Shown: positions 30,394 through 47,957, counted from the stretch's first letter. The stretch is DNA of 64,000 nt from Candidatus Latescibacterota bacterium (GCA_963707635.1 OY970173.1:2784001-2848000), one strand, 5' to 3'. Notes: a model not told the origin generated them from the letters alone. Program-made: numbers and translations.

Positions 30394-30419
30394 GTGGCTC
30401 ACCAAAACACGAGCAGAAA

Positions 30420-30594
30420 TGGTGGAGGCGGCGGGAATCGAACTTTCAAGAAGATGAAACACTAACCTGATGATGGCGCTCGATTTCGGACGATAAGAAT
30501 TGAAACATCACAGGTTATACGAACGCCGCTTCTCCACCCCAGTCCTCTGCAGTCTACCGGAATCGACCCATGTCATGGAGACATTTTGGAGACG
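30420..30594 (-). mobile_element. att-like junction A: ssrA 3'-end duplicate (24 bp) plus conserved arm, 175 bp
   Basis: TGGTGGAGGCGGCGGGAATCGAAC is identical to ssrA 46533-46556; aligns without gaps to copies B and C; ends CATGGAGACATTTTGGAGACG. Confidence 0.85.
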
Positions 30595-30647
30595 AGAACA
30601 AGATATCGGGCATGCAGGACTTCATCCTCCAGCCTGGGTGCAACGGT

Positions 30648-31379
30648 TCAATTCCGGACGATCTTGCTGAGTTCTGCAAGCGTGGTCGCCCGGTAGCCCA
30701 TCTCATCGAGGCGCGGAAGTACCCGATCGAGAACCTCGATCGTCCGTTTGCGGTTCGGCCGCCCGTCGTGCAGGACGAGGACGGCGCCAGGGCGAACATT
30801 CTCGAGGAACTGTTTGACCGTCAGACCGACACTGGTCCTGAGATCCATCGGGTAGGCCGTGGCCGCCACCGGCGTGTACCCGTTCTTCCGCATGATCCGG
30901 GCGATCCTCTTCGTTATCATGCCGCTTCCCGGACGGCACCAGCGGGGCGATCCGAGAGGCTGGATCAGCCTGTCGGTCCTTTTCAGTTCCTCGAGAAACT
31001 CTTCGTCCGACAGTGACGCGCTCATCCGGTCGGTAAAGAGGTGGTTGGCAAGTTCGTGTCCGTCGGAGCGGATGGATTCGACCAGTTCGGGATGCGCCTC
31101 TGCGTAGGAACCGATGATGAAGAATGTGGCCCTGGTCCGATGCTCGCGCAGCACGCGAAGAATTCCCGGAGTCACCTCGGGATGCGGTGCGTCATCGATG
31201 GTCAGTGCAATCAGGCGTTCCGTGGTGTCGATTCGAAATACAACATCGGGGTCGAGGCTGGATACGCGTGCGAGCAGCCAGTCACTCGGACGTACGAGCG
31301 TCCACGCACCAAGGGCTGCCAGCAGCAGAACCACGCAGGCGATCAGGATGAGGGTCACGTCACTCGCCGTCCACGACAC
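30648..31379 (-). CDS. Polysaccharide deacetylase (NodB/CE4)
   Basis: 'ALTIDDAP', 'ATFFIIG', 'GHELANH', 'RPGSG', 'GAVLVLHDG'. Confidence 0.9.
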   Translation of the reverse strand: MSWTASDVTLILIACVVLLLAALGAWTLVRPSDWLLARVSSLDPDVVFRIDTTERLIALTIDDAPHPEVTPGILRVLREHRTRATFFIIGSYAEAHPELVESIRSDGHELANHLFTDRMSASLSDEEFLEELKRTDRLIQPLGSPRWCRPGSGMITKRIARIMRKNGYTPVAATAYPMDLRTSVGLTVKQFLENVRPGAVLVLHDGRPNRKRTIEVLDRVLPRLDEMGYRATTLAELSKIVRN

Positions 31380-31387
31380 TCACTTGA

Positions 31388-32581
31388 TCAGTAGATGAGG
31401 TGCTCCGATATGCTGCCGTACGGCGTCTGACGGCGGTTGTCGTAGTGGCGCTTGACGATCTGACCATTCTCACGCCGCAACAGACCCACTTCGTCCAGAA
31501 GGCCAGGAGCGTGCGATGGTATCACGGTGTGGTTGCTCATGAGCCAGTGCAGCGCCGCGGGCATGCGAAGGAGGGCCACCGTCCGGTTACCGGCTGCCAG
31601 CGCGGAAAGGAATTCCGGCATGGTCTTGGGTGAGATGCGGATCCGCTGCGGCTCCCCCAGTCCGGCTCGCTCGTGAATGCGCTGATTGGCCCAGTCCACC
31701 GACTGCAGCGCCATCGTGATGCACGACCGCTCCAGCAGCTGGTAGCGGACTTTCCCGTTGAGAATATCCTCGATCGGGTTCTCCGGAACCTCTGCTTTCC
31801 TCGACTCCTTGGCCAGAGTCTCCCAGTCCTCGAGTTCCGCAGCCGGATAGCCATCAGGCATCTTGCGGCCCTCCTTTATATGTTCTTCCATGATGCTCAG
31901 GGTCGTCTGCCGCGAGACGGCATCAGCGAGAACGAGACTCACATACAACAGCTCGTTCTTCGCATTCTCAACATCGGGCAGGTTCAGAGGGTAGCAATGC
32001 CAGGGGCGGTCGAGTACGGCGTCGGCCACGCAGCGCACCGGACCCGCAAAGCACCTTGGGGTCAGTGCATACGTCGACGGATCCAAGCCCGCCACGGGGT
32101 CGAATGACGAAAGCGGCGGTCGCCACGCCTCCCAGCTCACGACGATGTCGTCGAGGACGGAATCGTTGGTGAAGGGCTGCCCGTCCGCTCCCAGCACGAT
32201 CGGACGACGGTCCTCTCGGAAGGTGAAGCGTAGCATCCCGTGCCCCCCGGGCGATTCTCGGCCGGCAACCTTCGATATCACCATGACGAACTCGACGGAC
32301 TCGACGGATTCCGCCCAGACCTTGACCGTACTGAGAAGGGTGATCCCTTCCACCGGATTGTTGAGAACGTTGACGTTTCGAACCAGATAGTAATGTTCGG
32401 AACCAAAACCGGCCGACGAGGAGAGCCAACTGACGAACAGGGGCGCCATCGCCGCGGAAAGCCCGCTTGGGAGCTCGTCCTGCTGGGTTCTCACGCGAAG
32501 GACCGGACTGTAGGTGCGCTGCCACTTGAGAATATCGGCAGCAGTAACCACGCGACGTTTACTCGACGGCATTGTCATCAT
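31388..32581 (-). CDS. Hypothetical protein
   Basis: 397-aa ORF tightly packed between FtsH and the deacetylase; no family recognised. Confidence 0.7.
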   Translation of the reverse strand: MMTMPSSKRRVVTAADILKWQRTYSPVLRVRTQQDELPSGLSAAMAPLFVSWLSSSAGFGSEHYYLVRNVNVLNNPVEGITLLSTVKVWAESVESVEFVMVISKVAGRESPGGHGMLRFTFREDRRPIVLGADGQPFTNDSVLDDIVVSWEAWRPPLSSFDPVAGLDPSTYALTPRCFAGPVRCVADAVLDRPWHCYPLNLPDVENAKNELLYVSLVLADAVSRQTTLSIMEEHIKEGRKMPDGYPAAELEDWETLAKESRKAEVPENPIEDILNGKVRYQLLERSCITMALQSVDWANQRIHERAGLGEPQRIRISPKTMPEFLSALAAGNRTVALLRMPAALHWLMSNHTVIPSHAPGLLDEVGLLRRENGQIVKRHYDNRRQTPYGSISEHLIY

Positions 32582-32582
32582 C

Positions 32583-34580
32583 CTAGCTCGCGCGCCGTGT
32601 TTCGGTTCCCGCTTGCGGCGCGAATCCGGTCACCTTCAGAATCTCCGGTTCATCCAGCGTCTCCTGCGCGAGCAGAGCCGTTACCAGCCTGTCGAGCTGC
32701 TGGCGATGCTGGACGAGCAGGCGCGTTGCTTCTTCGTGGCATTCGGAGATGATGCGCTGCACCTCCGCATCGATGAGCCGCGCGGTGGCGTCGCTGATGG
32801 GCTTCTCGCCCATGTACGCCGGAGACCCGCCAAGGTACGGATTGCCGGCGGGCGCCAGCTGTACCAAGCCCAGCTGATCGCTCATTCCCCAGCGCGTCAC
32901 CATCATGCGCGTGATGTTGGTTGCCTGCTCGATGTCGTTCTCGGCGCCGGTGGTCCGGCTGCCGTACACGACTTCCTCGGCGGCGCGTCCGCCCAGCGTC
33001 CCGACGATACGCCCGCGCAGATACGACTCCGGATAGTTGTAGCGGTCGCTGATCGGCTGCTGGTACGTAACACCGAGCGCCTGGCCGCGCGGCACGATCG
33101 AGACGCGTTTCACCGGATCGGCCCCGGGAGTCACCAGCCCGAGGATGGTGTGCCCTCCTTCGTGGTAGGCGATGCGCTTGCGGTCTTCGCTGCTCAGCAC
33201 GAGTGGACGCGTGGGGCCCAGGATGATCTTTTCCAGCGCGTCGAAGAAGTCTTTCATGTGCACGTTGTCCTGGCCGCGGCGCGCGGCCTGCAGCGCCGCC
33301 TCGTTCACGAGATTCTTGATGTCTGCTCCGGAGAGCCCGGTCGTTGCTCCGGCGATCTCGGCCAGATCGACGTCAGTCGCCAGCGGCACCTTGCGCGTGT
33401 GTACTTTGAAGATTGCCTCGCGCCCTGTCTTGTCGGGAAGGTTGACGACCACGCGCCGGTCGAACCGGCCCGCGCGCAGCAGCGCCTTGTCCAGCGTATC
33501 CGGCTGGTTGGTCGCGGCGAGGACGATCACGCCTTCTCTGCTCGAAAAGCCGTCCATCTCGGAGAGGATTTGCTGCAGCGTTTGCTCCTGCTCGCCGACG
33601 CCGCCCATCACAACGGGACCACGCGCGCGACCAACCGCGTCGATCTCGTCGATGAAGATGATGGCGGGCGCGTGCTCGCGCGCCTGCCTGAACAGATCGC
33701 GCACGCGCGCAGCACCCACCCCGACGATCATCTCCACGAACTCGGAGGCACTCATGGAGAAGAATGGAACACCTGCCTCTCCCGCCACCGCCTTCGCAAG
33801 CAGGGTCTTCCCCGTGCCGGGCGCGCCGACGAGGAGTACCCCTTTCGGAGCGGTTCCGCCCAGGCGCGTGTATTTCTCCGGCGCCTTGAGGAAATCGACG
33901 ATCTCGACCAATTCGTTCTCGGCTTCGTCGATTCCCGCAACGTCGTCGAATGTCACTTTCGTGTCCGTGCTGGTGTCATATCGGCGAGCCTTGCTCGCGC
34001 CCAGACCCATGACGCCGCCCGCGCCGCCCTGGCGGCGGAGCATCCACGCGTAGAACGCGACTATCAGAATGGCCGGTCCGAACCCCAGGAGCATTGACAG
34101 CAACGGGTTGCCCTTTTGTATGGGCTCTGCGCTGATCTCCACGTCGTGGTCGATCAACAACGCCTCGAACCCAGGGTCCACGAAAGAAGGAAGCGTGGTC
34201 TTGAAATTGCGGCTCGCTCGTGCGCCACCGCCCCATGGCCGGTCCGGAGCAGCGCGGCTCGAATCCGCAGGAGGATAGGTCACCGGTTCTCGGAACCGGC
34301 CCTGGATGATCTCGCCTTTGCTGAAGACCTCTTCGACGTTGTCGCGCGCTACCTGCGTTTTGAAGAATGTGTAGGGAACCGTGGTGGCCGGTTCGGCACC
34401 AAGGAACACGCGCATCACGACGTAGTTGATGATCAGAAGGACCAGGAACGTGAGCCAGACTCGGCGCGGCGGCAGGCGTGGGCCGTCGCCCGACGAACCA
34501 CGCGGCCCGGTCCCCGGGGCTCCACCGCGGCGCGTGATGGCAGGGCGCTGGCGTTGTTGGTCCTGATTAACGGTTTCCAT
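32583..34580 (-). CDS. ftsH: ATP-dependent zinc metalloprotease FtsH (probably an accessory paralog)
   Basis: 2 TMs, Walker A 'GAPGTGKT', Walker B 'IIFIDEID', SRH '[10 protein letters not shown]', zinc motif 'HEGGH'; AGGAG RBS. Confidence 0.95.
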
Positions 34581-34678
34581 AATCACTCCTGTGCACCCGG
34601 CACTGTGAATCCCACCGCGTTCCTGCAATTCACCAGGCATGGCGACATCTTGGAGACGACCGCGACATCCAATCCATC

Positions 34679-35440
34679 TCAGCCCGCGTTGCGCGGTTTG
34701 GCCGCCCACTCGGATTTCTTGCCTTGCATGCCGGGAGGCAGCGCGAGCCCGACGCGGTGGCGTGCGAAAGTGTCATCGCGATCGAGGTGGGCGAGCATGA
34801 GCGCGGCCGCATCGGAGTACGGAACGATCATCTGTGGGATCCAGCTCGCAAAGATCGGTAGCAGCAACGGGTCGGGGAGCGCGTGAGCATCGACGGGAAC
34901 CTCGACCGGCAGTGTATCCACCGCAATCCGCAGCCGGTTCAGGCCCAGAGCCGGCTCCTCTACCATTGGCCCCGGACACAGCAGGCGCCAGTCCAGGCCC
35001 GACCGACTGAGACGTTCGAAATTGACTCGGTGCGGCCAGTACGTGGACTCGACTTTGGGCAGGTCCACTCCTTTGCGACCGGAAGGGCCGATGTCCAGGA
35101 TCGCCGCCCCCGCGAGGAACCAGCATACCGGTTGCGCGGGAGCCGGAAGTGACTCGACGGCGGTTACGAGACGGTCGACGAGGTCAACGAAGGTTTGACC
35201 CTCCGTGACCATGCCGGCGCAATTTATGAGCGCATCGTGTCCGCTGATGAGCGCTGCGATGTCAACGGGCGCGACTGTGGAGAGATCGCCCTGGTGCACT
35301 GCGACTTGAGCCTGAGCCTCGAGCGGCAGCCTGGAAGGGGTGCGGACGGAAACGGTGACCTCGTGCCCGGCGGCCAACGCCAGGCGAAGCACGTGGCTAC
35401 CCAGGGATCCCGTTGCACCAAAGATAACGAGACGAGACAC
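34679..35440 (-). CDS. NAD(P)H-binding protein (flavin reductase/NmrA-like)
   Basis: 'LVIFGATGSLG', 'GHEVT', 'LDWRLLCPG'; GTG start. Confidence 0.82.
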   Translation of the reverse strand: MSRLVIFGATGSLGSHVLRLALAAGHEVTVSVRTPSRLPLEAQAQVAVHQGDLSTVAPVDIAALISGHDALINCAGMVTEGQTFVDLVDRLVTAVESLPAPAQPVCWFLAGAAILDIGPSGRKGVDLPKVESTYWPHRVNFERLSRSGLDWRLLCPGPMVEEPALGLNRLRIAVDTLPVEVPVDAHALPDPLLLPIFASWIPQMIVPYSDAAALMLAHLDRDDTFARHRVGLALPPGMQGKKSEWAAKPRNAG

Positions 35441-35463
35441 TTTCGATCCTCCCGGCACCGCGC

Positions 35464-37164
35464 CTACGGGTTGATCTCGAACCGCACAGACCGGAACGAG
35501 CCGATACCGTGATCGCTCTTGTAGACCGCCACACCGAAGATGAGCCCGGCGTCGAGGCGGTACGTATTCTGAGTCCACCCCTGGTACCCGGTCAGACGCC
35601 GTTCGCCATCGATCCACAGGTCGGCAGTCTTCAGCGCCGGGTCATAGATGATCTCGTATCGGTGATAGCCGCCAACGGGACTCTGCATGAAGTCCATACC
35701 CCGAAACTCGGGAACGACCTGCGTGGGCAGGCGTACGATCTCCCGGTCGCCGTCCACAAATACCTGGACGGGAAATCCGAGGCCGCCACCACCGAATTCG
35801 GCCGCCGCATAGGCCGCACCCGCTTCTGCCCTCAGCACGGCAGTCAGCTTCCAACCCCGATCCATCGCGCGCCGCGTCTCCGAGCTGGTGAAGGGATGGA
35901 AGTACAGCCCCCGACTGGGCGTCTCAAGGCGCCAGCCATCGTAGCCCGTGTGTGTCGGATTCTCGGTGACGCCAGTTCGCACCACTTCTTCGCGCACCTC
36001 GAAGCCCTCGGTGAGTGGGTCGAAGGCACCCACCTTCTCCACGATTCGGACCGGCTCCGCCCGGTCGCGCAGGATCGTCCTCTCGATGGCCGCTGCGGCG
36101 GCAAGGGCGATCGCCAACAGCGCGACGCCCACGGCGGCGCGGCGCACGCGCCGGCGCCCCGGCCCGAGCGTACCGGCCAGCGACTCGCTCCAGGCCTGAA
36201 CGTCGGTGGGCCGCTCCTCCACCCGAAAAGCCAGCGCCGACTCCAGCGCCGCCCGGGTCTCGCGGCCCGTCGATGCGGGCAGCGCACGAACGTGCGGATA
36301 CCCGCCGAGCATCTCACAGGCCACCAGCGCCATTGCATAGACATCGGAAGCGATCGAGTGTTTGCCTTCGAACTGCTCCGGCGCCATGTAGCGTACCGTT
36401 CCGGCGATCAGCACCGCCGTCGTTTCGGGTTCCAAATCCGAGCGGTCGATCTTAGCGATCCCGAAATCGATGAGTCGCACGATGTCAGCGCCGTCGTTGC
36501 GTGGCTGCAACATGATGTTCCCCGGCTTCAGGTCCCGGTGCGCAACGCCGGCGGTGTGCGCCGCGCCAAGGGCGCTCCCCATCTGCCGCAGGATTTCGGC
36601 CGCACGCGCTGGCGGAATGGGCCCCTGTGACAACAGCTCGCTCAGGCTCACGCCTGGAACGTACTGGATTACCAGAAAAGGCGAGCCGTCCTCGAGCTCG
36701 CCGACGTCCAAGATGCCCACGACCCCCGAATGATCGATTCGCGCGAGCGCATGCATCTCCTGCTCGAAGCGCGCTTTCAGCCAGTGGGACCGGCGCCCTT
36801 CGACACGCATCACCTTGATCACGACCGGACGCATCGCCAGGTGCTGGTCATGCGCCAGGTAGACCAGCGCCTGCCCGCCCGTGGCGAGCTCCCGGTCGAT
36901 GCGGTAGCGATTCCCCAACACCTGACCGCTGGTCAGACGTGCGGCGCTCGTCAGACCCTCCACGACCGATTGCCCGAGAGGTGACCAGGGAGGATCCTCG
37001 AGAAATCCGTCATCCGGCGTGTCCCCCGAAAGCAGTGCCTCCACCTCCGCCCGCAGCGCGCCGTCGCCTTCGCAGGCCAGGGTCAGGAACGAATCTCGTT
37101 CGTCGCCGTCCAGCGCTCTCGCCGCCGTGAAGAGAGACGAGATCCGCTCCCACCGATCGTTCAC
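35464..37164 (-). CDS. Hanks-type Ser/Thr protein kinase with TM and extracellular domain
   Basis: 'WERISSLF...LRAEVEALL' N-terminus typical of ECF-associated kinases; 'VVIK', 'HRDLKPGN', 'DFG', 'YMAPE'. Confidence 0.92.
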   Translation of the reverse strand: MNDRWERISSLFTAARALDGDERDSFLTLACEGDGALRAEVEALLSGDTPDDGFLEDPPWSPLGQSVVEGLTSAARLTSGQVLGNRYRIDRELATGGQALVYLAHDQHLAMRPVVIKVMRVEGRRSHWLKARFEQEMHALARIDHSGVVGILDVGELEDGSPFLVIQYVPGVSLSELLSQGPIPPARAAEILRQMGSALGAAHTAGVAHRDLKPGNIMLQPRNDGADIVRLIDFGIAKIDRSDLEPETTAVLIAGTVRYMAPEQFEGKHSIASDVYAMALVACEMLGGYPHVRALPASTGRETRAALESALAFRVEERPTDVQAWSESLAGTLGPGRRRVRRAAVGVALLAIALAAAAAIERTILRDRAEPVRIVEKVGAFDPLTEGFEVREEVVRTGVTENPTHTGYDGWRLETPSRGLYFHPFTSSETRRAMDRGWKLTAVLRAEAGAAYAAAEFGGGGLGFPVQVFVDGDREIVRLPTQVVPEFRGMDFMQSPVGGYHRYEIIYDPALKTADLWIDGERRLTGYQGWTQNTYRLDAGLIFGVAVYKSDHGIGSFRSVRFEINP

Positions 37165-37172
37165 GCCTGCGC

Positions 37173-37739
37173 TCAAGCCTTCAGCCTCGCATGGAGCCAG
37201 GACCGCGCAATGGCCCAATCCCGGTCCACGGTTCTGGGGTTCACTCCAAGAGCGCTCGCCACTTCGGGCACACTGAGTCCCGCAAAATAGCGCAACTCCA
37301 CGACACGAGCCTGGCGGGGTGAGAGCTTCTCGAGATCCGAGAGCGCTTCGTCCAGGTCCAGCAGCTCCACCGACTGCTCCTGACTGAGGCTCAAAGCGTG
37401 ATCGAGCGAAAGCGCGGTTTGCTCACCCTCGCGCTTCTGTGCCTGCCGGTGGCGCGCGTGATCGATCAGGATCCTCCGCATGATGTTGGCGGCGGCGGCG
37501 TAGAAATGTGCCCGGTTCTCCCACGTGTGGTGTTCGTGGGCCACCAGCCGCATGTACGCCTCGTGCACCAGAGCGGTGGGCTGCAGATCGCGACCGGGAC
37601 GTTCGTGACGGAGCCGGGCTCGTGCCAGGTTTTTCAACTCGGGGTAGATCAGATCCATCAGTCGGGACGCGGCGGCGCCGTCACCCGGCCGAAACTCGCG
37701 CAGGAGAAGCGTCACCTGGGTGGCCCGTTCGCTGGTCAT
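37173..37739 (-). CDS. ECF sigma factor, kinase-associated type (TIGR02999-like)
   Basis: 'VTLLL', 'LQPTALVHEAYMRL', 'NRAHFYAAAANIMRRILIDHAR', 'TVDRDWAIARSWL'. Confidence 0.92.
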   Translation of the reverse strand: MTSERATQVTLLLREFRPGDGAAASRLMDLIYPELKNLARARLRHERPGRDLQPTALVHEAYMRLVAHEHHTWENRAHFYAAAANIMRRILIDHARHRQAQKREGEQTALSLDHALSLSQEQSVELLDLDEALSDLEKLSPRQARVVELRYFAGLSVPEVASALGVNPRTVDRDWAIARSWLHARLKA

Positions 37740-37890
37740 TGCCTGCCTCCCGTTTTCTTTTGACCCCAACAAGATAGCACGCGACCCCGCAGGATGTCGC
37801 GATTGCCTCCGCTGTCACGCCATGAAGGGTCGAGGGGTGAAGTGAAACAGGCCAAGTTGTCCGAAATGGACGGAGTGGAAGGAGACACAC

Positions 37891-38691
37891 ATGGATAAGT
37901 TCACAGTAGCGATTTTTCCGAACGAAGCCGCGGCCTATCAAGGGACACGCGTTTTCAAGGAACTGGACAAGGAACGCAGCCTGACGCTCTACGGCATGGC
38001 CGTGATCGCCAAGGACATGAATGGGAAAGTGACGATCAAGGAGGCCGCGGACCGGGGACCGCTGGGGACGGCGGTGGGCGGTCTGACGGGCGGACTGATC
38101 GGCCTGCTCGGCGGTCCAGTGGGAGCGGCGGTCGGGCTTGGAAGCGGTGCGCTGCTCGGGAGCCTGGTCGACCTTTCCAACCTCGGCGTGAGCACGAGCT
38201 TCGTGGACACCGTCCTGCAGGAAGTCACACCGGGCAAGGCCGCCGTCGTCGCCGAAATGGAGGAGGAATGGATCACGCCGCTCGACACGCGGATGGAGGC
38301 CATCGGCGGCGTCGTGGTACGTGAGCCGCGGGCTGATTTCGAGTACCTGCAGTACCAGGAGGAAGTCGTGGCGCTGAAGGATGAGCTCGCGGAACTCAAG
38401 GCCGAATTCGCCCAGTCCAAGGACAAAAACCGCGCGAAGTTGAAAGCGCGGATTGACCAGACAGAGAAGAAGCTCGAGGGCGCCTCTGCCAGAGCCGAAG
38501 CATGGATGGATCGCCGCCGGGAGGAGACGGAAGCGAAGGTCAAGGCGCTGCAGGCCCGTGCCGAAAAGGCAAGTGCCGAGACGAAGGCAAGAAACCAGAA
38601 GCGCGCCGCGGAGATTCGAGCCGAAAGCGAGCGCCGGTCGGCCCTGATGCAGCAAGCATCGACGCTGGTGAAAGAGGCGCTCAGACATTAG
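37891..38691 (+). CDS. DUF1269-like glycine-zipper membrane protein with C-terminal coiled coil
   Basis: 'GTAVGGLTGGLIGLLGGPVGAAVG'; E/K/A-rich tail. Confidence 0.78.
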   Translation: MDKFTVAIFPNEAAAYQGTRVFKELDKERSLTLYGMAVIAKDMNGKVTIKEAADRGPLGTAVGGLTGGLIGLLGGPVGAAVGLGSGALLGSLVDLSNLGVSTSFVDTVLQEVTPGKAAVVAEMEEEWITPLDTRMEAIGGVVVREPRADFEYLQYQEEVVALKDELAELKAEFAQSKDKNRAKLKARIDQTEKKLEGASARAEAWMDRRREETEAKVKALQARAEKASAETKARNQKRAAEIRAESERRSALMQQASTLVKEALRH

Positions 38692-38794
38692 CCGCGCGCT
38701 CGCGGTCCTGACCGGTGTCAGGTCGCTGGTCGCACAAAGGATCGGGGCCGTTCATGGGAACGGCCCCGCATCCGACGAGAAACGGGGGTCAGTC

Positions 38795-39502
38795 ATGTTT
38801 CCGCTGCGGGACGATATTCCATCGCGCCGCCGACCGGTGGTCGTCTGGGCGCTCGTCCTTCTGAACGCCATCGTCTTCCTGTACGAGATGCAGCTCTCCG
38901 AGGTCGAGCTAACGCAGTTCATCGAACGGTTCGCACTGACGCCGGCGGCGCTGACGGCTCCAAGCGGACTGCTCCACCACTGGACGACGCTCTTCACTCA
39001 CATGTTTCTGCATGGTGGCTGGCTTCACGTCATCGGCAACCTATGGTACCTGTGGATCTTCGGCGACAACGTCCTGGATCGCTTTGGCAGCGGGCGATTC
39101 CTGCTGCTCTATGTTGCGGGTGGGCTCGTGGCGGCTACGCTCCAGGTTTGTCTCAATCCCCAGATGCAGGCGCCGATGGTGGGCGCAAGCGGTGCGATTG
39201 CCGCCGTACTGGGTGCGTACCTCGTGCTCTATCCCAGGGCGCGCGTGATCACTTTCATTCCGATCTTTGTGTTCATCAAGCGGGTGAGTGTCCCGGCCGT
39301 CGTCTGGCTCGGGCTCTGGTTTGTAGAACAGTATCTCCTCGGAACGGGGTCTCGCTCCGATGCGACTGAAAGCGGAGGCGTCGCCTACTGGGCGCACGTC
39401 GGTGGTTTTCTCTTCGGGATCCTGGCCGGAATCTGGACGCGCGCGCGGGAAGCTGCGGGGAGAGGGCCGGCGCACGGTATCCGGCCCGCCTTGATGTCGT
39501 GA
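38795..39502 (+). CDS. Rhomboid intramembrane serine protease
   Basis: 'HMFLHGGWLHVIGNLWYLWIFGDN', 'GASGA', 'AYWAHVGGF'. Confidence 0.93.
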   Translation: MFPLRDDIPSRRRPVVVWALVLLNAIVFLYEMQLSEVELTQFIERFALTPAALTAPSGLLHHWTTLFTHMFLHGGWLHVIGNLWYLWIFGDNVLDRFGSGRFLLLYVAGGLVAATLQVCLNPQMQAPMVGASGAIAAVLGAYLVLYPRARVITFIPIFVFIKRVSVPAVVWLGLWFVEQYLLGTGSRSDATESGGVAYWAHVGGFLFGILAGIWTRAREAAGRGPAHGIRPALMS

Positions 39503-39596
39503 TCGTCGTCGGCGTTACGCCATAAATGTCGAAGGAAGAACAATCGTCGCCAGCCGGCGGAACCGTCGTCCGGCGACACAACCTGGGAGGTAGATC

Positions 39597-40313
39597 ATGG
39601 TGGAGATGCTGGCGCGCAACTGGGGATGGGTGCTGATGCGCGGGATCGCGGCGATACTGTTCGGCATGCTCACGCTCTGCAATCCGGGAATCGCACTGAC
39701 GACGCTCGTCATGCTCTTTGGCGCCTACGCGCTCCTCGACGGCGTCTTTATAGCGGTGTCGGCGGTCGCGAACCGGAAGGGCCAGTCGCGCTGGGTGGCA
39801 CTGCTGGTGGGCGGGATCCTGGGGATCGCGGTCGGCATCCAGACCTTCCTGATACCGAGCCTCACGGCGGCCGCTTTGGTAGCATTCATCGCGATCTGGT
39901 CAATCATCATCGGCATCACCGAGATCGTGGCGGCAATCACGCTGCGCAAGGTGCTCTCGGGCGAATGGATGCTTATGCTCGCCGGCCTGGCGTCGGCCGC
40001 CTTCGGCGTATTCCTCATCGCGCGTCCGTCGCTGGGGGCCCTGGCAGTGGTGCTTTGGATCGGCGCCTCGGCGATGGTATCGGGGATCCTGCTTATCGCG
40101 CTGGCCTTCCGACTGCGCAGCTGGGGCCGCAGTCCGGCCATCGCGGCACTCACCGCGCGCGCAGCAGCGTGGCGTGCCGGCGTAGTGTACAAACTCGCGA
40201 GCCCGCGGCCGCCACGGAGCGGCCGCGTCGCTTCCAGGCCGCGTGTGACGGCATTTCGCCGGCGGCCGCGAGGTTCATCGAGAGTCCCTCAGCACACGAA
40301 GGAGACTCATTGA
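39597..40313 (+). CDS. HdeD/DUF308 family membrane protein
   Basis: 'NWGWVLMRGIAAILFG...LFGAYALLDG'; six TMs; the basic C-terminal ~50 aa is uncertain. Confidence 0.85.
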   Translation: MVEMLARNWGWVLMRGIAAILFGMLTLCNPGIALTTLVMLFGAYALLDGVFIAVSAVANRKGQSRWVALLVGGILGIAVGIQTFLIPSLTAAALVAFIAIWSIIIGITEIVAAITLRKVLSGEWMLMLAGLASAAFGVFLIARPSLGALAVVLWIGASAMVSGILLIALAFRLRSWGRSPAIAALTARAAAWRAGVVYKLASPRPPRSGRVASRPRVTAFRRRPRGSSRVPQHTKETH

Positions 40314-40335
40314 GTAGCTCAAAGGAGGAACAATC

Positions 40336-40833
40336 ATGTACGGATTCAAAGCGTTCGTGTTCAATGGCAAGAAGACGGCCAGCAAGGCTTACGATACTCT
40401 CGAAGAGCACATGCCGGTCTACCCGTGGATTGATGACGCCGCCGTGGTGTCGAAGAACAAGCTCGGCTTCACCCGGGTTTACAGCACCTGGGCGCAGGAC
40501 GACACCGCGGTCGGCGTCGGAACCGGTCTCGGCGTAGTGACCGGTGCCCTGCTCGGAGCCATTCTGGGGCCCGGCGTCGCTGCGGCGGGAGCCGCGGTGG
40601 GTGGTTCAGTGGGCGCCGTGTCCGGCGCGGTCGGCGAAAGCGTCCTCAGCGACCCGCGCTTGGACGACTTTGCGGCGTCGCTCGCGAAGGACACCTCGGC
40701 GTTGATTCTGGTCGGCGAGAGAGCCTCGATCCTCGACTTCACCTCGGCGGTCGCGCCCTACGGTGGAAAGATCATCGAGACCAACCTCGACGAGAAGGAC
40801 GTCAAGGCCCTGAGGAAGTCTCTCAAGAAGTAG
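40336..40833 (+). CDS. DUF1269-like glycine-zipper membrane protein
   Basis: AAGGAGG RBS; 'IDDAAVV', Gly/Ala-rich hairpin, 'GGKIIETNL'. Confidence 0.78.
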   Translation: MYGFKAFVFNGKKTASKAYDTLEEHMPVYPWIDDAAVVSKNKLGFTRVYSTWAQDDTAVGVGTGLGVVTGALLGAILGPGVAAAGAAVGGSVGAVSGAVGESVLSDPRLDDFAASLAKDTSALILVGERASILDFTSAVAPYGGKIIETNLDEKDVKALRKSLKK

Positions 40834-40870
40834 GGAGCCGTCGATCCCGATGCCCGGCGGGAGCGATCTG

Positions 40871-40915
40871 GGGGCGACGCGCCAACACAAGGTTGGCCCG
40901 TCGCCCCTCTTTTTT
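40871..40915 (+). terminator. Intrinsic terminator
   Basis: GGGGCGACG-CGCCAAC...GTTGGC-CCGTCGCCCC hairpin followed by TCTTTTTT. Confidence 0.8.
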
Positions 40916-40979
40916 CGCGTCGGCGCGGCCCATTTAGGACGCAGAGCGCTTCATCATGAGCAGCGATGCCACAAAGGGT

Positions 40980-41050
40980 TGGTGGAGGCGGCGGCGAGCG
41001 AAGCGAAGCTCAGAGCCGACCTCTGGCTTGTGTTCTACACAAACAGAGTT
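40980..41050 (-). repeat. tmRNA-linked ~70-bp repeat unit (copy next to junction B)
   Basis: First 42 bp are identical to 46464-46505; tail TTGTGTTCTACACAAACAGAG resembles 46441-46461. Confidence 0.85.
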
Positions 41051-41225
41051 TGGTGGAGGAGGCGGGAATCGAACTCTGTCGATGGAGAAACTCTAACACG
41101 TTGATGGCGTGTGGTTTCGGATGCTACGAGTTGAAACATCGCCAGTTAGGTGACCGCTGCTTCTCCACTCCAGTCCTCTGCAGTCTTCTGGAATCGACCC
41201 ACGTCATGGAGACATTTTGGAGACG
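41051..41225 (-). mobile_element. att-like junction B: ssrA 3'-end duplicate (1 mismatch) plus conserved arm, 175 bp
   Basis: TGGTGGAGGAGGCGGGAATCGAAC ... CATGGAGACATTTTGGAGACG. Confidence 0.85.
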
Positions 41226-41248
41226 CCACGCAGCGTTCGCTCGGGACG

Positions 41249-42733
41249 TTAGTGCTGCGTGGGCAGATCTGAGGAATGTAGCAGCTCCACAACCAGCCGC
41301 TGCTCCTCGTTGCCTCCCTCGTCGTGCCACCGAACGCGCGTGATCTGGATGGACCGGTTCGTGATCCACAGCGGATCGGACACGGCCCATTCGGAGCCAT
41401 CGAGTAGGCACCACGAATCACCCGTCGCGGCGTCCGCAATCCACAGGTCGGCCGCAATGGTGTCGCCCACGTGGTGCAGCCGTGTCGGACGCGAGAATGC
41501 AATCCACCGCCCATCCCGGCTCCAGGAGAATTCATGCGACGCGCCCACCTTCAGACTGTCGATAACCGTTACTCGGGCATCGGGAACGGTGACAGTGTAG
41601 AGAAGGGCTCCGCTCCACTTGCGGGAGATGCCGCTTACTGCGATGGTGCGTGAGTCCGGCGACCACTTCGATTCAGTCCCGTCGGTGAGGTCGCCTTCCA
41701 TGACGATCTTGGACGCCGTCACGTCGACCACCGTCAATTGATAGGGATTCAGATGCGATTTCCAGACCACGCAGCTAAGGCAGCGGCCGTCCGGCGACCA
41801 TTGAGGCAAGGACGCCGGCGTCTCTAGCAAACGGCGCGATTCTCCAGTCGCGACATCGACGATCTCCACGTAACCCCTGCGCGAAACAATCACGACGCGT
41901 GCAACCAGAGAGTCCGGCCCAGGCACGTAGTTTCGGTCCGACGACGACCGGAGATAATCCGTTTTTGTTTCGAAGGGGACGTCGTCAGCCCACGGCTCTC
42001 GCAAAGCCACGACTTTCCACGGATTCACGGACGCGTGATTGCGGACTGCGCTGCACTTGACGGCAGTCAGGAGCAGACTTTCGTCGCCCGGCGCAAACTC
42101 TCCAACGGCGACATCGTCCAATCCGAAGCTCGCCCCGTTCTTCCCCACGACGCGGAAGCCAAACTGAACCTTCTTGCCGGCCCACGCCGACAGATCGACA
42201 AAACGTTCGCGGTAGATGAATGGATCCGCCGGTGACTCATTGCCAGTGATCGACCAGAGAGACGTCCAGCCTGTCGTACCCGCTTCACGAATGTTGAGCG
42301 ATCCATCGAGCACACTCGACCACTGCGTATTCCCGGACCAGGAAAACTTGATTGCCTTGTCGGTCGCTCCGAGCGCCACCACCGGCGTGATCAGCCACTC
42401 GTCGATAGCTCTCGGTGACTCGCTTCCGACATACGCCGCCGCGCTCCCGGTTCCAATGTTGTCGGGATCGGTGGTTCGGTGCCAGGCGTGCGGCAGAGGC
42501 AGGCCTGCGCTCTTCGTGCTCCAGCCCGGCGGCGGAAAGGTTGCGCCCTCGAATCCCTCCGCCAGTGTGGCTGGCGGTACACGTCCCGCCGGTACCGCCG
42601 ACTGGGATCGTTGGGAAGCAGCCAACGGCGTGCATTCTGGTACTCCGTGGGCGTTGCCGACGATGAACGTGGGAACGCTGAGGAGAAGCCCGGCAATAAA
42701 CGCCTTCATAAGGAGTGTCATGGGTCGCTTCAT
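41249..42733 (-). CDS. Secreted protein: cleaved-adhesin/choice-of-anchor-J-like domain plus TolB-like (PD40) propeller
   Basis: 'EGFEGATFPPPGW', 'DEWLITP', 'VDLSAWAGKKVQFGFR', 'LDDV'; then 'WSPDG', 'WSPDS', 'WSRDGRWIAF'. Confidence 0.72.
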   Translation of the reverse strand: MKRPMTLLMKAFIAGLLLSVPTFIVGNAHGVPECTPLAASQRSQSAVPAGRVPPATLAEGFEGATFPPPGWSTKSAGLPLPHAWHRTTDPDNIGTGSAAAYVGSESPRAIDEWLITPVVALGATDKAIKFSWSGNTQWSSVLDGSLNIREAGTTGWTSLWSITGNESPADPFIYRERFVDLSAWAGKKVQFGFRVVGKNGASFGLDDVAVGEFAPGDESLLLTAVKCSAVRNHASVNPWKVVALREPWADDVPFETKTDYLRSSSDRNYVPGPDSLVARVVIVSRRGYVEIVDVATGESRRLLETPASLPQWSPDGRCLSCVVWKSHLNPYQLTVVDVTASKIVMEGDLTDGTESKWSPDSRTIAVSGISRKWSGALLYTVTVPDARVTVIDSLKVGASHEFSWSRDGRWIAFSRPTRLHHVGDTIAADLWIADAATGDSWCLLDGSEWAVSDPLWITNRSIQITRVRWHDEGGNEEQRLVVELLHSSDLPTQH

Positions 42734-43033
42734 TGGATCATCGTGCGAGTGCGACAGGTCGCTGCATAACCTTCGCCATTTCACGACCAGAAGGGACCGC
42801 TGAAAGGTGCTGCAGAGGTGCGTTCAATGCAGAGTGTCCGCGGAGTAGTTAGCTAACGCGGCGATGCCACCCAAGCGACGACTAGATACGAAGCGGCGGG
42901 AACTGCGGAAACGCGGATTTCGTCATGGAAACGGCGAGCGGCATAAGTTGTTCACGCTTCAGCGGTTGGTTACAATGGCACGCAAGTCGCGCTTCGCGCG
43001 AGCACTCATAACTCTATACGAATACACAAGAAA

Positions 43034-43208
43034 TGGTGGAGGCGGCGGGAATCGAACCCTGTTGCGAACGAAACATTAACCTGATGATGGCGTGCGATTT
43101 CGGTTGTTGTGAGTTGAGAGATCGCAGGTTAGTTGACCGCCGCTTGTCCACTTCAGTCCTCTTGAGTCTACCGGACTCAACCCACGTCATGGAGACATTT
43201 TGGAGACG
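43034..43208 (-). mobile_element. att-like junction C: ssrA 3'-end duplicate plus conserved arm, 175 bp
   Basis: TGGTGGAGGCGGCGGGAATCGAACCC matches ssrA; ends CATGGAGACATTTTGGAGACG. Confidence 0.85.
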
Positions 43209-43402
43209 GGTTTGACCTTCGCCCTTGTGCGGAGTTACTTTTATGGTGAATTGCCAGTCGGTTCTCGCCCGTCTCCGGGCAAAGATGTGGGCTTGAAAGT
43301 GTCCACCGTTCGGATTACGCTGCCTGCATTCCGGCCCGGTGATTTCATTCCGGAGACCTCCTTTCTTGCGGTTAACTCCAGGCGGCCATCGGCCCAAGGA
43401 GC

Positions 43403-46324
43403 GTGACGCGCTTGCCAACTCCGCGCGATTTCATCCTGCACCGCAGTTTCTTCGCCATGCTCGTACTGGCGGTCCCGCTCTTCCCGGCGCTGCTCTCCGC
43501 GGCAGAGAACGCGACCTCGACGGCCGTTCCTGCTCCGGCCGCGCCCGTGCGCCATGCGCCGTCGATTGATCGCAACGCCATCCAGGCCGCCGTTCAGGAA
43601 TTCCAGTCTTCCCAGTCACCCCGCTGGACGGTGTCGTGGGACCCGGTGAGCGGTCTCCCTCGAATGCTGACTGGCCAGACCACGCGCTCCTACGGGGCCA
43701 CATCGGAAGCCGCCGCGCTGGCATTCGCTGGCGAGCATCGGATGCTTCTGGGCTTGATCGATGAGAAACACTCGGTGCGCCTGGTTGGAACGAAACTCAT
43801 GCGCACCCAATGGCGCGTAACGCTGCAACAACAATTCGCCGGGATCGACGTCCTCGATGGGACGATTCAGGTGGTCGTGGACGGGAAAGGCCGCGTCCTA
43901 TATGTGACAAACTCGGCGTGGCCGGTTTCCGCCGTCGATTTCTCGATCGATGTCGGTGAGAGCGCCGTACGCTCCTCGATCGCCCGGCGGTTCAGTGGCG
44001 AAGACGTCACCTACAATGACGGACCCCGCCGCGTGATCTACCCATCCGGGAATGGGCGGCTCGCGTATGTGGCGTACGTGCTCGCCGGCCCGCAGGGGCC
44101 GTGGCGCGTCCTCGTCGATGCGCGGACGGGCGGCATCCTGGAAGCGCGGCGGTTGGTGGTCGAGGAGAAGCAGGCCCCATCGCAGGATGCCGCGACGCAG
44201 CAGAATCCGTCGCGCCCCGCGGACGTCGCCGACGTCAATGATCCGTGTGCCCGCGAGTGGAACGAGATGGGGGGAGCCGCGGTGATCGAGGTCCCGGATC
44301 CTGCAGACCCGTACTATGTCGACGTAAAGGTTGGCGTGCCCGGTCTCGGCGAGTTTCAACCGCAGGGGATCGGGACGTCCGCTGCGGGGATCAAACTCTT
44401 TCCGTGCATTTATTACACAATCCAGGTCGACTACAACGTGCACACCTGGGGTGGCTGGAATACTCCCAACGGCTTCCGTGATGTCTTCTTCGTCAACGTC
44501 AACAACATGAACTGGTACTGGAATCTCGGGCTCATTCCGCAGGCGCAGCTGTTCTGTACGACCGCCTACAACGACATGGGACTGATTCTCCCCGGCAAGG
44601 CCTGGGTCGCCGGCGGGAATCGATGCGGCGACGGCCTCTTGTGCGATCTGGTGGGATCGTTCCAGTTCGACATCATCGAACCGAACAACACCAAAGAGCT
44701 CTATCTCTCGGTTGGGATGCAGCGGGTCTCAGTTTCGTGTCCGTCATGGGGGACCATCCGGGTCAAGATCATCGCGAAGTCCCGTGTCTTCGACCCCAAC
44801 CCGGTGACCACGCTGAACCAGCCCTTCACGGACCAGGATGACGCCAACGAAGCCGTTCCCTGCGACGCGTACATCGGCGTCGACCTTCCGAATCTTACCC
44901 CGCCGCCGCCCGGGCAACCCTGGACTCTCACGGGCGACTATTGCGAGATCGTGGACATCACGGCCCCTGCCAAAACGTACACCTCGGCGCGCGACCCGAA
45001 TTTCCCCTATCTGCGCCGGTGCGACATGTTCGAAGCGGTGAATGCCTACTACCACATCACGACCAACCAGCTCTACATCCAGTCTCTCGGTTTTACCGGC
45101 CTTTCCGGCATCAACAACCGCGCGCATCGCGTGGACCCGCATGGGATGGATCACGTGGACAACTCGCAATACGTCGGTAATCCCCCGGGACTTGGCTACA
45201 TCGAGTTCGGCGAGGCCTTTGTCGACGACGCCGAAGACGCCGACGTGATCCTCCACGAGTACGGCCACTCGATTCAGGACAACCAGACATTCGGCTATTA
45301 CCTCGGGACTGGCGCAGGCAACGGCTTCGGCAACGAGACGTGGGCGATGGGCGAGGGGTTCGCCGACTACTGGGCGTGCAGCAACTTTGCCGACGAGAGT
45401 ACCGCGAGCGGCTTCGACCCCGCCGCGTACGGCGAGTGGAACAAACAGAACATGACCGGGACCCGCAGGGTCGACAAGAACAAGATCTATCCGACGAATA
45501 TGGAAAGCGAAGAACACGCCGACGGAGAGATCTGGTCGCGCACGCTGTGGGACCTCTTTCAGGCAGTCGGGAAGACGACCTCTGACGTGCTCATACTGGA
45601 GAGTCACTATCTCGTTCCTTCACGTCCATTGTTCAGCGACGGCGCCAAGGCGTTGATTGCAGCGGACGCAGTTGCCAACGCGGGCGCCAACAAGAATACG
45701 ATTGTCGCCATCTACGTCGATCGCGGCATCTTCCGTAGTCTCGCCGTTGCATCGTCGCCCATCAACGGCGTGCCGATCACCGTGTCGAGGCAGGACGTAC
45801 GTGGCGATCAAAGTGATGCCACCGACTTCAACCGGACGTATGCGTGGGGGGACTCGGTATCGCTCGACGCACCGCCCTCGTTTGGCGACCGTACTTTCAC
45901 GCGCTGGGATGTGGACGGCGTCGCGGGTGCGAACGGCGACTTGACCGCCGTCGTGCGCATGGACGAATCGCCACCATTTCACTCGGCCATCGCTTACTAC
46001 GATACTCTCCCTGGCGACCCCGGCACGCCCGTCCGTGACATCCCGAAAGCCCTGGCGCTGCTTCAGAATCACCCGAACCCGTTCAACCCGACGACGACGA
46101 TCACGTTCACGTTGCCGAGGGAGATGGAGATCGAGCTTTCGGTGTTCGACGTGGCGGGCCGGCGGGTGGCCACACTCCGGAGCGGACGCGAACGGGCAGG
46201 CGTCTATGCCGTGGTGTGGGATGGACGGAGCGCGGCCGGTGAGACGGTGAGCTCGGGCGTGTACATCTACCGGTTGCGAGCGGGCCAAACGGTTCTGACG
46301 AGGAAGATGACACTACTCAAGTAG
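43403..46324 (+). CDS. M36/M4-like (fungalysin) metalloprotease with FTP/PepSY propeptide and FlgD-Ig CTD
   Basis: 'LQQQFAGIDV', 'VLVDARTGGIL', 'ILHEYGH', 'GEGFADYW', 'EEHADGEIW', 'NHPNPFNP...RKMTLLK'; start could be 43457. Confidence 0.88.
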   Translation: MTRLPTPRDFILHRSFFAMLVLAVPLFPALLSAAENATSTAVPAPAAPVRHAPSIDRNAIQAAVQEFQSSQSPRWTVSWDPVSGLPRMLTGQTTRSYGATSEAAALAFAGEHRMLLGLIDEKHSVRLVGTKLMRTQWRVTLQQQFAGIDVLDGTIQVVVDGKGRVLYVTNSAWPVSAVDFSIDVGESAVRSSIARRFSGEDVTYNDGPRRVIYPSGNGRLAYVAYVLAGPQGPWRVLVDARTGGILEARRLVVEEKQAPSQDAATQQNPSRPADVADVNDPCAREWNEMGGAAVIEVPDPADPYYVDVKVGVPGLGEFQPQGIGTSAAGIKLFPCIYYTIQVDYNVHTWGGWNTPNGFRDVFFVNVNNMNWYWNLGLIPQAQLFCTTAYNDMGLILPGKAWVAGGNRCGDGLLCDLVGSFQFDIIEPNNTKELYLSVGMQRVSVSCPSWGTIRVKIIAKSRVFDPNPVTTLNQPFTDQDDANEAVPCDAYIGVDLPNLTPPPPGQPWTLTGDYCEIVDITAPAKTYTSARDPNFPYLRRCDMFEAVNAYYHITTNQLYIQSLGFTGLSGINNRAHRVDPHGMDHVDNSQYVGNPPGLGYIEFGEAFVDDAEDADVILHEYGHSIQDNQTFGYYLGTGAGNGFGNETWAMGEGFADYWACSNFADESTASGFDPAAYGEWNKQNMTGTRRVDKNKIYPTNMESEEHADGEIWSRTLWDLFQAVGKTTSDVLILESHYLVPSRPLFSDGAKALIAADAVANAGANKNTIVAIYVDRGIFRSLAVASSPINGVPITVSRQDVRGDQSDATDFNRTYAWGDSVSLDAPPSFGDRTFTRWDVDGVAGANGDLTAVVRMDESPPFHSAIAYYDTLPGDPGTPVRDIPKALALLQNHPNPFNPTTTITFTLPREMEIELSVFDVAGRRVATLRSGRERAGVYAVVWDGRSAAGETVSSGVYIYRLRAGQTVLTRKMTLLK

Positions 46325-46388
46325 TCCGCGTCTGATCGAAGCGGCGCACAGAGCCAACGCATGGTCCTCGTTCGACGAGAACAGGGTT

Positions 46389-46532
46389 TGGCGGAGGCAG
46401 CGGCTGGCGCGGAACGCGCTGCTCAAAGCCCACCTCAGGTTTGTGTCTTACACAAACAGAGGTTGGTGGAGGCGGCGGCGAGCGAAGCGAAGCTCAGAGC
46501 CGACCGGAGGCTTACTGTTAGTAAGCATGGGT
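46389..46532 (-). repeat. Two tandem tmRNA-linked repeats (75 and 69 bp) directly downstream of ssrA
   Basis: Units start TGGCGGAGGCAGCG (46389) and TGGTGGAGGCGGCG (46464); each has small hairpins (GTTTGTGT/ACACAAAC; GCTTAC/GTAAGC). Confidence 0.8.
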
Positions 46533-46904
46533 TGGTGGAGGCGGCGGGAATCGAACCCGCGTCCGAAGAAGCAGCCGCAACGGTTACTACGTGTGTAGTC
46601 CGTGGTGATTTCTCATCTCCGTACCCACCGCGGACGAAAGTGTAACGGAGACCAGCCCGGTAGTTTCTCGCGCCTCAGCCCCAGACATAGCCTCGGCGCC
46701 AGCCCCCAGAGTATGACGCCCACTCACCGGCCCTGGAGACCCAGCCGGTGGGGACGGGAGCCTAAGCTAGCTTAGCTAGTTAGGCAGCCAGTGCGACGTT
46801 GTTGTCAGCACTTGAATTGGTGCCACCTGGTTTTACGAGGCTTGTGACCTGGCTCGACACGCAACCGGTACGCCCATCTTCCCCGTCGAGACCTGTTCGC
46901 CCCC
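46533..46904 (-). ncRNA. ssrA: tmRNA; tag peptide (A)ADNNVALAA encoded at 46809-46780
   Basis: 5' GGGGGCGAACAGGTCTCGACGGGG; 3' GGGTTCGATTCCCGCCGCCTCCACCA; acceptor stem with G3:U; tag ending ALAA-stop; 372 nt. Confidence 0.96.
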
Positions 46905-47001: not shown

Positions 47002-47829
47002 CTAGTCGCGATAGAGTGCCTTGACCCCTCCCCACGAACGCGGCTCGGTGGAAATAGGACCGAAGCCACACGCCGGCATCAGGCCCTGGGATGCGTACGG
47101 CCCCTGCTGCACCCACGGTGCGATAGAGTAAGATGGGGTAAGGCCAGGAAAGAAGTTCGTCGTGCACCCGGGAATATCGCAGAACTGGGGACCGGAATCG
47201 TACACCCAAGGGGCAGAGCCTGCGGGCACCAGTTGAATTGGTGGGAGCCCTTCTACGCCCGTGTCGAGAGTCTTCACCGTTGAGGGAGTGGTGACGTTGG
47301 TGAAGGTGAACCGCGGCTGGACGAAGAAAACGGAATCGAACGTGCCACCGTTCGCATGTGTCTTTCGGATGGTCATGTTTCCAGGCGGTGGCGCGATGCT
47401 CGAAAGATCGACCTCGAGCCACCATGGGTCCGGAAACTGCCCCCCGTTGTAGGTGACCGTAATCGGCTGCACGCTGACCAGGTGCAGCGCGACGATCTCG
47501 ATCGGAACCACGTCCTGGCTACCGATCAAGGGTAGTTGAGCGTTGTCGAGCCGCCGGACAATCGTGTCCGTGCTCCCGAGGTTCCCGGCTCCACAAACGG
47601 GATGGGTCACCAGCGGAACGCCCTTGAGCTGCACATGCCCGGTGAAGGGGTCTGATCCCGGGCCGAAGAAGCCCACGGGGATCGTGTACGGTCCAATGAA
47701 ATTCTGATACGTCGGGGGGGAATCGGTCGCCAGGAAATCATTCCCAGCAATGACGTCCTGGGCCAGAGTCGGCACGGGGACCGCGACGAGTCCGAGAGCG
47801 ACCAGCATTCGCAAGGTACGCATATCCAT
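47002..47829 (-). CDS. Hypothetical secreted protein with C-terminal 'SWGGVKALYR' tail
   Basis: Signal peptide 'MRTLRMLVALGLVAVPVPTLA'; 'DTIVRR...VPIEIVALHLVS' body. Confidence 0.78.
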   Translation of the reverse strand: MDMRTLRMLVALGLVAVPVPTLAQDVIAGNDFLATDSPPTYQNFIGPYTIPVGFFGPGSDPFTGHVQLKGVPLVTHPVCGAGNLGSTDTIVRRLDNAQLPLIGSQDVVPIEIVALHLVSVQPITVTYNGGQFPDPWWLEVDLSSIAPPPGNMTIRKTHANGGTFDSVFFVQPRFTFTNVTTPSTVKTLDTGVEGLPPIQLVPAGSAPWVYDSGPQFCDIPGCTTNFFPGLTPSYSIAPWVQQGPYASQGLMPACGFGPISTEPRSWGGVKALYRD

Positions 47830-47957
47830 CACCTTCGATTTGGAGAAGACACGTGAGCGTGCGACTGACACCCCGTGGACTCAGGGGTGTCGAGAGGGTA
47901 TTCCACAGTCTTGCAACCGTCAAGTCAATGGTGACGAGGGCCGCAAAGAGGCGCGGA

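Follow-up and report, generated by a model that had tools for sequence, protein, structure and literature searches.

Probable attachment-site scars of successive integrase islands behind the transfer-messenger RNA gene of an uncultured Latescibacterota bacterium

Repeated elements behind ssrA

The gene for transfer-messenger RNA (tmRNA), ssrA, lies intact within a 64,000-nucleotide stretch of a Candidatus Latescibacterota genome (GCA_963707635.1, OY970173.1:2784001-2848000). We refer to this whole stretch as the window and give positions within it unless another locus is named; the genome itself, G000 among the genomes compared here, is a single contig of 3.2 Mb. An earlier note, made from the sequence of the window, had pointed to three co-oriented elements of exactly 175 bp downstream of ssrA, each joining the 3' end of that gene to an arm of about 150 bp that aligns without gaps but has diverged between copies. 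Both parts of this description were borne out. A repeat search returned one family of three copies (30415-30594, 41046-41225, and 43029-43208; 79-82% identical), and pairwise global alignments of the 175-nt elements gave 142/175, 142/175, and 143/175 identities with 0 gaps (81-82%). Each element consists of a 150-nt arm followed by a core, the 24 to 26 nt shared with the ssrA 3' end from the T-loop to the CCA; the core of the copy that we call arm B carries one G>T change. The three core copies and the intact ssrA all have the same orientation, on the minus strand, and so form direct repeats like those of tandem islands at tRNA and tmRNA genes (Table 1).

The note had also reasoned that arm copies scattered over the genome without the ssrA core would speak against its reading. 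Whole-genome BLAST of the arm found three copies only, those of the window (E of 1.5e-42 or better), and a relaxed motif search of the genome added a single match, a remnant at window position 34657. The remnant belongs to a truncated fourth arm, which is placed between the stop codon of a gene for an NAD-binding protein (34679) and the likely start of an ftsH gene (34579).

To describe the anatomy of the arm, we aligned 18 copies from the order to which the genome belongs, which have a mean column identity of 76%. The first block, CGTCTCCAAAATGTCTCCAnGAC, contains two GTCTCC repeats, and the second holds GGGGAC/GGAC repeats, three or four in number, at a spacing of about 10 nt; two copies are short by exactly one repeat. 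Beyond these repeats the sequence varies up to a conserved CCGAAATCGCnCGCCATCA..GTTAG box, from which about 13 unconstrained nucleotides lead to the core; throughout the arm family, the core is the 3' end of a tmRNA or tRNA gene, from T-loop to CCA. Divergence among the three window arms is uneven. Identities run, block by block, from 69/69 in the motif through 103/123, 88/123, and 81/99 to 16/39 in the spacer and 70/72 in the core, and the longest block identical among the three is 23 nt at most. Such a pattern fits neither recent local duplication nor uniform decay, and the contrast of motif and core with the spacer implies independent acquisitions rather than copying in place. The uneven divergence has the look of site variants that have diverged but would still be functional.

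Table 1 Features of the window and of integrase-bearing members of the arm family
Locus	Feature	Position	Strand	Evidence or remark
Window	ssrA (tmRNA gene), tag ADNNVALAA	46533-46904	-	ARAGORN and Rfam, 180.6 bits
Window	Attachment-site core, last 24-26 nt of ssrA	46533-46558	-	
Window	Arm A (150 nt) + ssrA core; probable attR-type scar of island 1	43034-43208	-	Other-phyla profile, E 2e-32
Window	Arm B + core; probable attR-type scar of island 2	41051-41225	-	Other-phyla profile, E 5e-35
Window	Arm C + core; probable attR-type scar most distant from ssrA	30420-30594	-	Other-phyla profile, E 2.8e-33
Window	Truncated fourth arm, ~60 nt	~34600-34659	-	TCGTCTCCAAGATGTCGCCATG motif + ~35 nt resembling the repeat block
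Window	Three tandem units behind ssrA	~46464-46532, 46390-46463, 46331-46389	-	Total span 46331-46532
Window	Single 71-nt unit behind core 41051	40980-41050	-	
Window	Island 1: secreted M36 (fungalysin-type) metalloprotease with FlgD_ig/type IX secretion system (T9SS)-type C-terminal domain	43403-46324	+	Pfam
Window	Island 2: 511-aa secreted PD40-repeat protein	41249-42784	-	Pfam; stop 23 bp from arm B
Window	Island 3a: DUF1269, DUF308, rhomboid, DUF1269, extracytoplasmic function (ECF) sigma factor, Ser/Thr kinase, NAD-binding protein	34679-40833		Pfam
Window	Island 3b: second FtsH paralogue, 397-aa protein without Pfam family, polysaccharide deacetylase	30648-34579	-	
L112	ssrA	15931-16285	-	
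L112	Integrase open reading frame (ORF)	14659-15993	+	PF00589, 7e-32
L112	Arm + core	9849-10023	-	
L098, L102	Full-length integrase directly past arm-core		Opposite to arm-core	Target gene outside locus; tandem junction
L116	tRNA-Gly, short integrase remnant ORF, arm + core			PF00589, 3.3e-11
L104	tRNA-Ser, short integrase-like ORF, arm + core			Home-made profile only, no Pfam match

The arm family and its integrases

We searched for the arm in related genomes (G labels; 41 including G000) and in further individual loci (L labels). By BLAST, 15 of the 41 genomes were positive, often with multiple copies 1-3 kb apart, and the copies in relatives usually lie just past a co-oriented gene. An IUPAC pattern of the 5' motif matched 116 stretches in a collection of species-representative genomes. 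A script run over 79 of these loci (L049-L127) found a T-loop about 150 nt downstream in 49 of 86 motif matches, continuing into the 3' end of tmRNA or of various tRNAs. The loci come from Acidobacteriota (Vicinamibacterales and Terriglobia), Myxococcota, Planctomycetota, Eisenbacteria, and Krumholzibacteriia/Latescibacterota. A profile of the order's 18 copies gave 117 matches in 101 of 114 loci, and in the reverse direction, 34 arms from other phyla yielded a profile that spans the three window arms end to end (E values in Table 1). Judged by its sequence, the arm is a member of a family of attachment-site (att) arms spread over several phyla.

In canonical members of the family, a gene for a tyrosine integrase adjoins the target RNA gene and is convergent with it, and arm and core stand at the far end of the island. 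All of these parts fit within 5.9 kb in L112. The earlier note had suggested looking for a copy of the arm next to a tyrosine integrase; this is what L112, L098, and L102 show, and no intact example occurs in the present genome. Nine ORFs were collected with a home-made integrase profile, which divergent integrases may escape, and Pfam assigned PF00589 to six of them (one weakly, 6.6e-4), other integrase domains to one, and nothing to two. At a distance of 42-45 nt beyond the core, the motif recurs (CGTCTCC..GTCTCCA) and there encodes the tail of the family's integrases (…GDILET…); both arms of a full site therefore carry it. We call this second, integrase-side copy the P' motif. The repeated motifs are putative arm-type binding sites of the integrase.

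Lambda-type att sites place a core crossover region beside a long arm with repeated short motifs at helical spacing. The arm family resembles lambda attP and attR in combining a core with a long arm, in its repeated short motifs, which the integrase would bind, and in its conserved arm length. The 5' motif had 0 matches in viral contigs and a Myxococcus-type arm had 0 in 50,697 phage records, while the cognate integrase gave one weak match in the phage collection (32.7% over 41% of its length). The arm architecture was thus without a match in phage and viral sequence collections, and no literature search aimed at the arm family was made. Phage Mx8, which we take to carry its attP within intP, was considered as a relative, and nothing in the motif, arm, or integrase searches supports its membership.

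The 150-nt layout stands before the 3' ends of tmRNA and several tRNAs in at least five phylum-level groups, paired with integrases that carry the motif in their tails. As a signature it marks island boundaries in metagenome-assembled genomes (MAGs) even where no integrase is present, which we consider the most reusable result of this analysis, and the family offers candidate integrases with predictable sites for recombination assays.

Loss of the integrase and origin of the array

The window contains no integrase, transposase, relaxase, or phage gene that Pfam could recognize in its 22 + 31 ORFs (transposases were not searched for in six frames), in agreement with what the earlier note had seen. 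The six-frame integrase search that the note had proposed returned three PF00589 hits in the genome and none in the window. Two of the three are full tyrosine recombinases 8 kb apart, which recur as a pair in relatives and are therefore Xer-like. The third is a C-terminal fragment (G000:C1:806248-806385) with no tRNA gene within 30 kb and a tail that, we presume, resembles those of integron integrases. No serine recombinase (PF00239) was found in the genome. When five integrases of the family were compared with the window by tblastn, nothing appeared at E<1 except the ssrA core read as protein. The P' motif follows none of the four cores in the window, and none of 36 genomes of the order matched a strict pattern of core plus P', so that by this pattern no integrase lies beside an array. 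An integrase at its target gene was found neither in the window nor elsewhere in the genome, and given that the cognate enzyme is absent from both, we conclude that the window holds scars rather than intact members of the family.

A trace of the missing enzyme survives in a genome of the same genus. In G012, an integrase remnant broken by stop codons lies directly behind ssrA in the canonical orientation. It matches the integrases of L098 and L102 over 49 codons at 61-67% identity and that of L112 over 139 codons at 39%. Both the HLSPA…GEILET tail and the P' motif are present in it. This P' remnant is about 113 nt behind the ssrA core, with a 68-nt unit intervening, and therefore falls outside the gap allowed by the strict pattern. 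G009 has a weak integrase remnant behind a core (tblastn, E 0.08-0.46). Integrase remnants within the segments had been named by the note as the mark of ordinary decayed islands; the sister genome G012 has one behind its ssrA, and the segments of the window have none.

Orthologous cargo allowed us to follow individual arms. The PD40-repeat protein has an orthologue in G013 (80% amino acid identity, 392/491; fourfold sites 155/223), where it lies in the first island behind ssrA rather than the second as in G000. The arm behind it in G013 is identical to arm B at 132 of 179 positions with 8 gap positions, has a broken T-loop, and is no closer to arm B than non-orthologous arms are, and the left ends of the two cassettes have nothing in common beyond the gene start region. 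Behind the polysaccharide deacetylase that G000 shares with G012 (188/197 amino acids), the first ~120 nt of the G012 arm are gone, though 100 of 110 fourfold sites in the gene are identical. The arm profile hit 32 sites in the window and the loci of the order; nine of these hits were partial, four of the nine being bare ssrA 3' ends, and only one of the 32, that of G012, is followed by the P' motif. The truncated and eroded orthologous arms, the dissimilar left ends, and the partial hits favor scars that erode once they are fixed.

We regard it as probable that the three 175-nt elements are right-end att scars of successive tyrosine-integrase islands at the tmRNA gene, the integrase-bearing left ends of which have been deleted. 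Islands would have been inserted one by one at ssrA, with older ones displaced outward, and the M36 island, nearest ssrA, would be the newest. The M36 gene had no match at E 1e-30 in 15 of the 16 congeners searched, the sixteenth having a partial one at 35%; this, together with the position of the PD40 cassette, first in G013 and second in G000, agrees with additive growth in which the newest island stands next to ssrA. Islands that kept an integrase and a left P' arm could excise and be lost, whereas left-end deletions would immobilize those that stayed. A sieve of this kind would explain arrays that lack integrases and yet have good right arms, and the array in the present genome is likely immobile. 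To this extent the account of the earlier note is supported, namely in reading the repeats as lambda-type att scars of tandem integration at the ssrA 3' end, with no integrase left and with cargo that varies among relatives.

Several observations weigh against deletion as the whole explanation. No trace of an integrase or of the P' motif is left in any of the four islands of the window, and across the order only G012 keeps one, which is a great deal of clean loss for random deletion. Arrays of single-gene units with arms 1-3 kb apart recur in G033 (four arms within 7.5 kb), in G030 (two within 1.3 kb), and, as pairs, in other phyla (L102 and L104). Given such recurrence, the process could be more regular than decay. 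The window arms are full length and score like those of integrase-bearing islands, so they could still be substrates, and plasmids or phages bearing the integrase may have been missed by the MAGs. Finally, we infer both that the integrase binds the motifs and in what order the islands were inserted.

Some of these observations also favor a second explanation, that of the earlier note, in which cargo and arm-core would be excised as non-autonomous cassettes by recombination between two arm-cores and inserted by recombination between arm-core and ssrA, with an integrase acting in trans. The arms are full length with every conserved block kept, they often follow a single co-oriented gene with its stop codon 20-75 bp away, arrays without an integrase are found repeatedly both inside and outside the order, and the integrase has been lost with remarkable cleanness. 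Moreover, a circle of arm-core plus cargo recombining with the ssrA core would give exactly the observed order. We nevertheless consider such cassettes unlikely, because the P' motif conserved inside the integrase 3' end of canonical islands is absent from the window cassettes, the PD40 cassettes of G000 and G013 have unrelated left ends, and arms have been truncated or eroded in place. In addition, one segment holds about ten genes, the M36 gene is inverted relative to its arm, and the genome lacks a cognate integrase, just as the core-plus-P' pattern is missing from the 36 genomes of the order.

The earlier note had gone further and proposed an integron-like capture array, and on this point the evidence did not support it. 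Integrons are arrays of mostly single-gene units, each with a recombination site, the newest unit standing nearest the anchor. The window is similar in its mostly single-gene units, each with a site-like element, and in an order that would place the newest nearest the anchor. In contrast to integrons, it has no IntI-type integrase or attI beside the array (PF00589; core plus P' in 0/36 genomes), its sites are conserved in sequence and not as an attC-type hairpin, an RNA gene provides the anchor with its 3' end, one unit comprises about ten genes, and one gene is inverted. Canonical relatives, furthermore, carry their own integrase, and within the window one arm is truncated, no P' is found, and left ends are unconserved. 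It is distinctly unlikely that the arm-core is a lambda-type counterpart of attC, with a trans-acting integrase that excises units between two arm-cores and inserts them at ssrA without P'. If it were, Krumholzibacteria, Acidobacteriota, and other phyla would possess an integron-like gene-capture array on tRNA and tmRNA genes.

A third possibility is that islands made by integrases in other lineages are now exchanged by homologous recombination through ssrA, the arms, and the short units described below, with no site-specific step in this lineage. Conserved anchors do flank variable cargo, the two newest islands stand between the unit behind ssrA and that behind core 41051, which share 94% identity over 50 nt, and the genome is without a cognate integrase. 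We find this very unlikely, as arms that are 81-82% identical, with identical blocks of no more than 23 nt, are a poor substrate, and the G012 remnant shows that integrase-bearing islands entered ssrA in this genus. It is scarcely credible, lastly, that the 175-nt element, instead of being an att site, functions as a structured RNA (a 3' untranslated region element or a small RNA resembling tRNA) or arose by local duplication: it does have a tRNA-like T-loop, acceptor, and CCA end and often lies past a co-oriented gene, but RNAalifold found no conserved structure in the 18 copies (-5.77 kcal/mol, 10 pairs, 0 compensatory changes), the 5' strand of the T-stem is not kept in the copies, Rfam gave a significant score in the window for ssrA alone, the arm co-occurs with integrases in canonical islands, and blockwise divergence opposes recent duplication.

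Tandem integrative islands that have lost their integrases are a kind already known, and the present locus is an instance in a little-studied lineage. In Dehalococcoides, tandem islands lie downstream of the single-copy ssrA and are bounded by repeats of its end; an integration module is present in 16 of 31 ssrA islands, and the remainder are discussed as possibly cis-mobilizable or as fixed remnants (McMurdie et al. 2011, PMC3146451). That system differs in using a large serine recombinase, DsiB, with a 20-bp repeat without a long arm, whereas here we find a tyrosine integrase family and a 150-nt motif-bearing arm. The tycheposon islands of Prochlorococcus are likewise additive and lie beside tRNA or tmRNA genes, with partial tRNA copies between elements; newer elements displace older ones, fragmented integrases and extra partial tRNAs occur, and most islands are without an intact element (Hackl et al., bioRxiv 10.1101/2020.12.28.424599). 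They belong to another host phylum, and set against the consulted text of that preprint, the conserved 150-nt arm is a feature of the family described here. The window also resembles the cis-mobilizable elements (CIMEs) related to streptococcal integrative and conjugative elements in being att flanked and in tandem with related elements and in having lost recombination and transfer genes, none of which was found in the window. By definition CIMEs retain functional attL and attR (as quoted in PMC3146451). In the window, the attR-type arms are full length, whereas the P' motif of a canonical attL is absent at all four left ends.

Cargo, hairpin units, and further sites

Comparison of the genes behind ssrA, which the earlier note had also suggested, showed that they vary among G000, G001, G012, and G013, as in tandem islands. 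Given these differences among congeners, the locus is, on the evidence of gene content, a gene-gain hotspot, and it provides a clean complete-genome case of an uncultured lineage building one behind ssrA. The cargo consists mostly of secreted enzymes and surface proteins. The best match of the M36 protease (60%) is in G034, a member of another family, and no arm was found in the 1.5-kb flanks of that homologue. In G000 its orientation is opposite to that of the other arm-adjacent genes.

The note had divided the cargo into three segments. Their gene content and the distances from stop codon to arm, 23 bp for the PD40 gene and 53 bp from arm C for the last gene of the ten-gene stretch, agreed with our ORF list and Pfam annotation; the ten-gene segment, however, is composite because the truncated fourth arm lies within it. 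The second FtsH carries AAA and M41 protease domains (32583-34579), and another copy lies at 745904 in the genome. Its 708-aa ORF overcalls the start, the likely one being the ATG at 34579 with AGGAG upstream. On the other side of ssrA, two ORFs at 47002-49392 (289 and 447 aa) have no Pfam family, and the genome encodes several paralogues of the longer one, 32-36% identical to it.

Short units of 69-75 nt lie directly behind ssrA and behind core 41051. Each combines a hairpin with 16 nt that partially copy the ssrA 3' end; of those behind ssrA, the third is degenerate, and it is the last 50 nt of the single unit at 40980-41050 that match the unit adjoining ssrA. Similar units occur behind ssrA or cores in G008, G009, G012, and G013, and their stems vary between copies while pairing is retained. 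In G012, the one 68-nt unit (L031 13988-14055) separates the integrase remnant from the ssrA core, and its pseudo-core is 44 nt from the P' motif. Since this is the canonical spacing, the units may be secondary insertion sites or a left-end segment of islands.

Integrases related to the family occur beside tRNA-Lys and tRNA-Thr genes in G028, G005, and G006. In G000, the last 17 nt of the tRNA-Thr gene are repeated exactly at two downstream places, at distances of 2.4 and 11.2 kb (C1:1612062-1623280), and the tRNA-Lys gene has one 3'-end copy 0.7 kb downstream (C1:2848255-2849017); none of these duplicates has an arm of the ssrA type. Taken together, the integrases of the relatives and the duplicates in G000 suggest a seemingly general pattern in this genome, in which the enzyme is lost after integration at an RNA gene.

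A search of public reads yielded eight runs, each with at most 0.12 of the sampled words and all stored as contigs. Four of these runs were aligned, and the pieces were mostly 88-95% alike and came from relatives. The junctions that they contained had a shorter side of 20-46 letters or extra letters between the two sides, and were located at the repeated arms.

Arms also occur in other settings. In G027, a complete genome of the sister family (contig C1), the two arm copies (3.87 Mb and 0.77 Mb) lie apart from ssrA (3.36 Mb), so that arms in the sister family are not always beside ssrA. Two contigs of the MAG G033 carry nearly the same arm and upstream sequence (L037 7259-7433 and L038 15137-15311) and diverge past CCCGCCGCC, which reflects either strain variation or rearrangement within the core. 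In G026:C1, two inverted arm copies enclose a defense-like island (L043 3239-17765) with HEPN, a MazF-type toxin, two REase-ARP nucleases, two HTH+M78 regulators, a pPIWI-associated nuclease, and a tyrosine integrase. This integrase was not counted as cognate, as it is not beside a core and is without the GDILET tail. The nuclease and regulator pairs of the island are mirrored around it.

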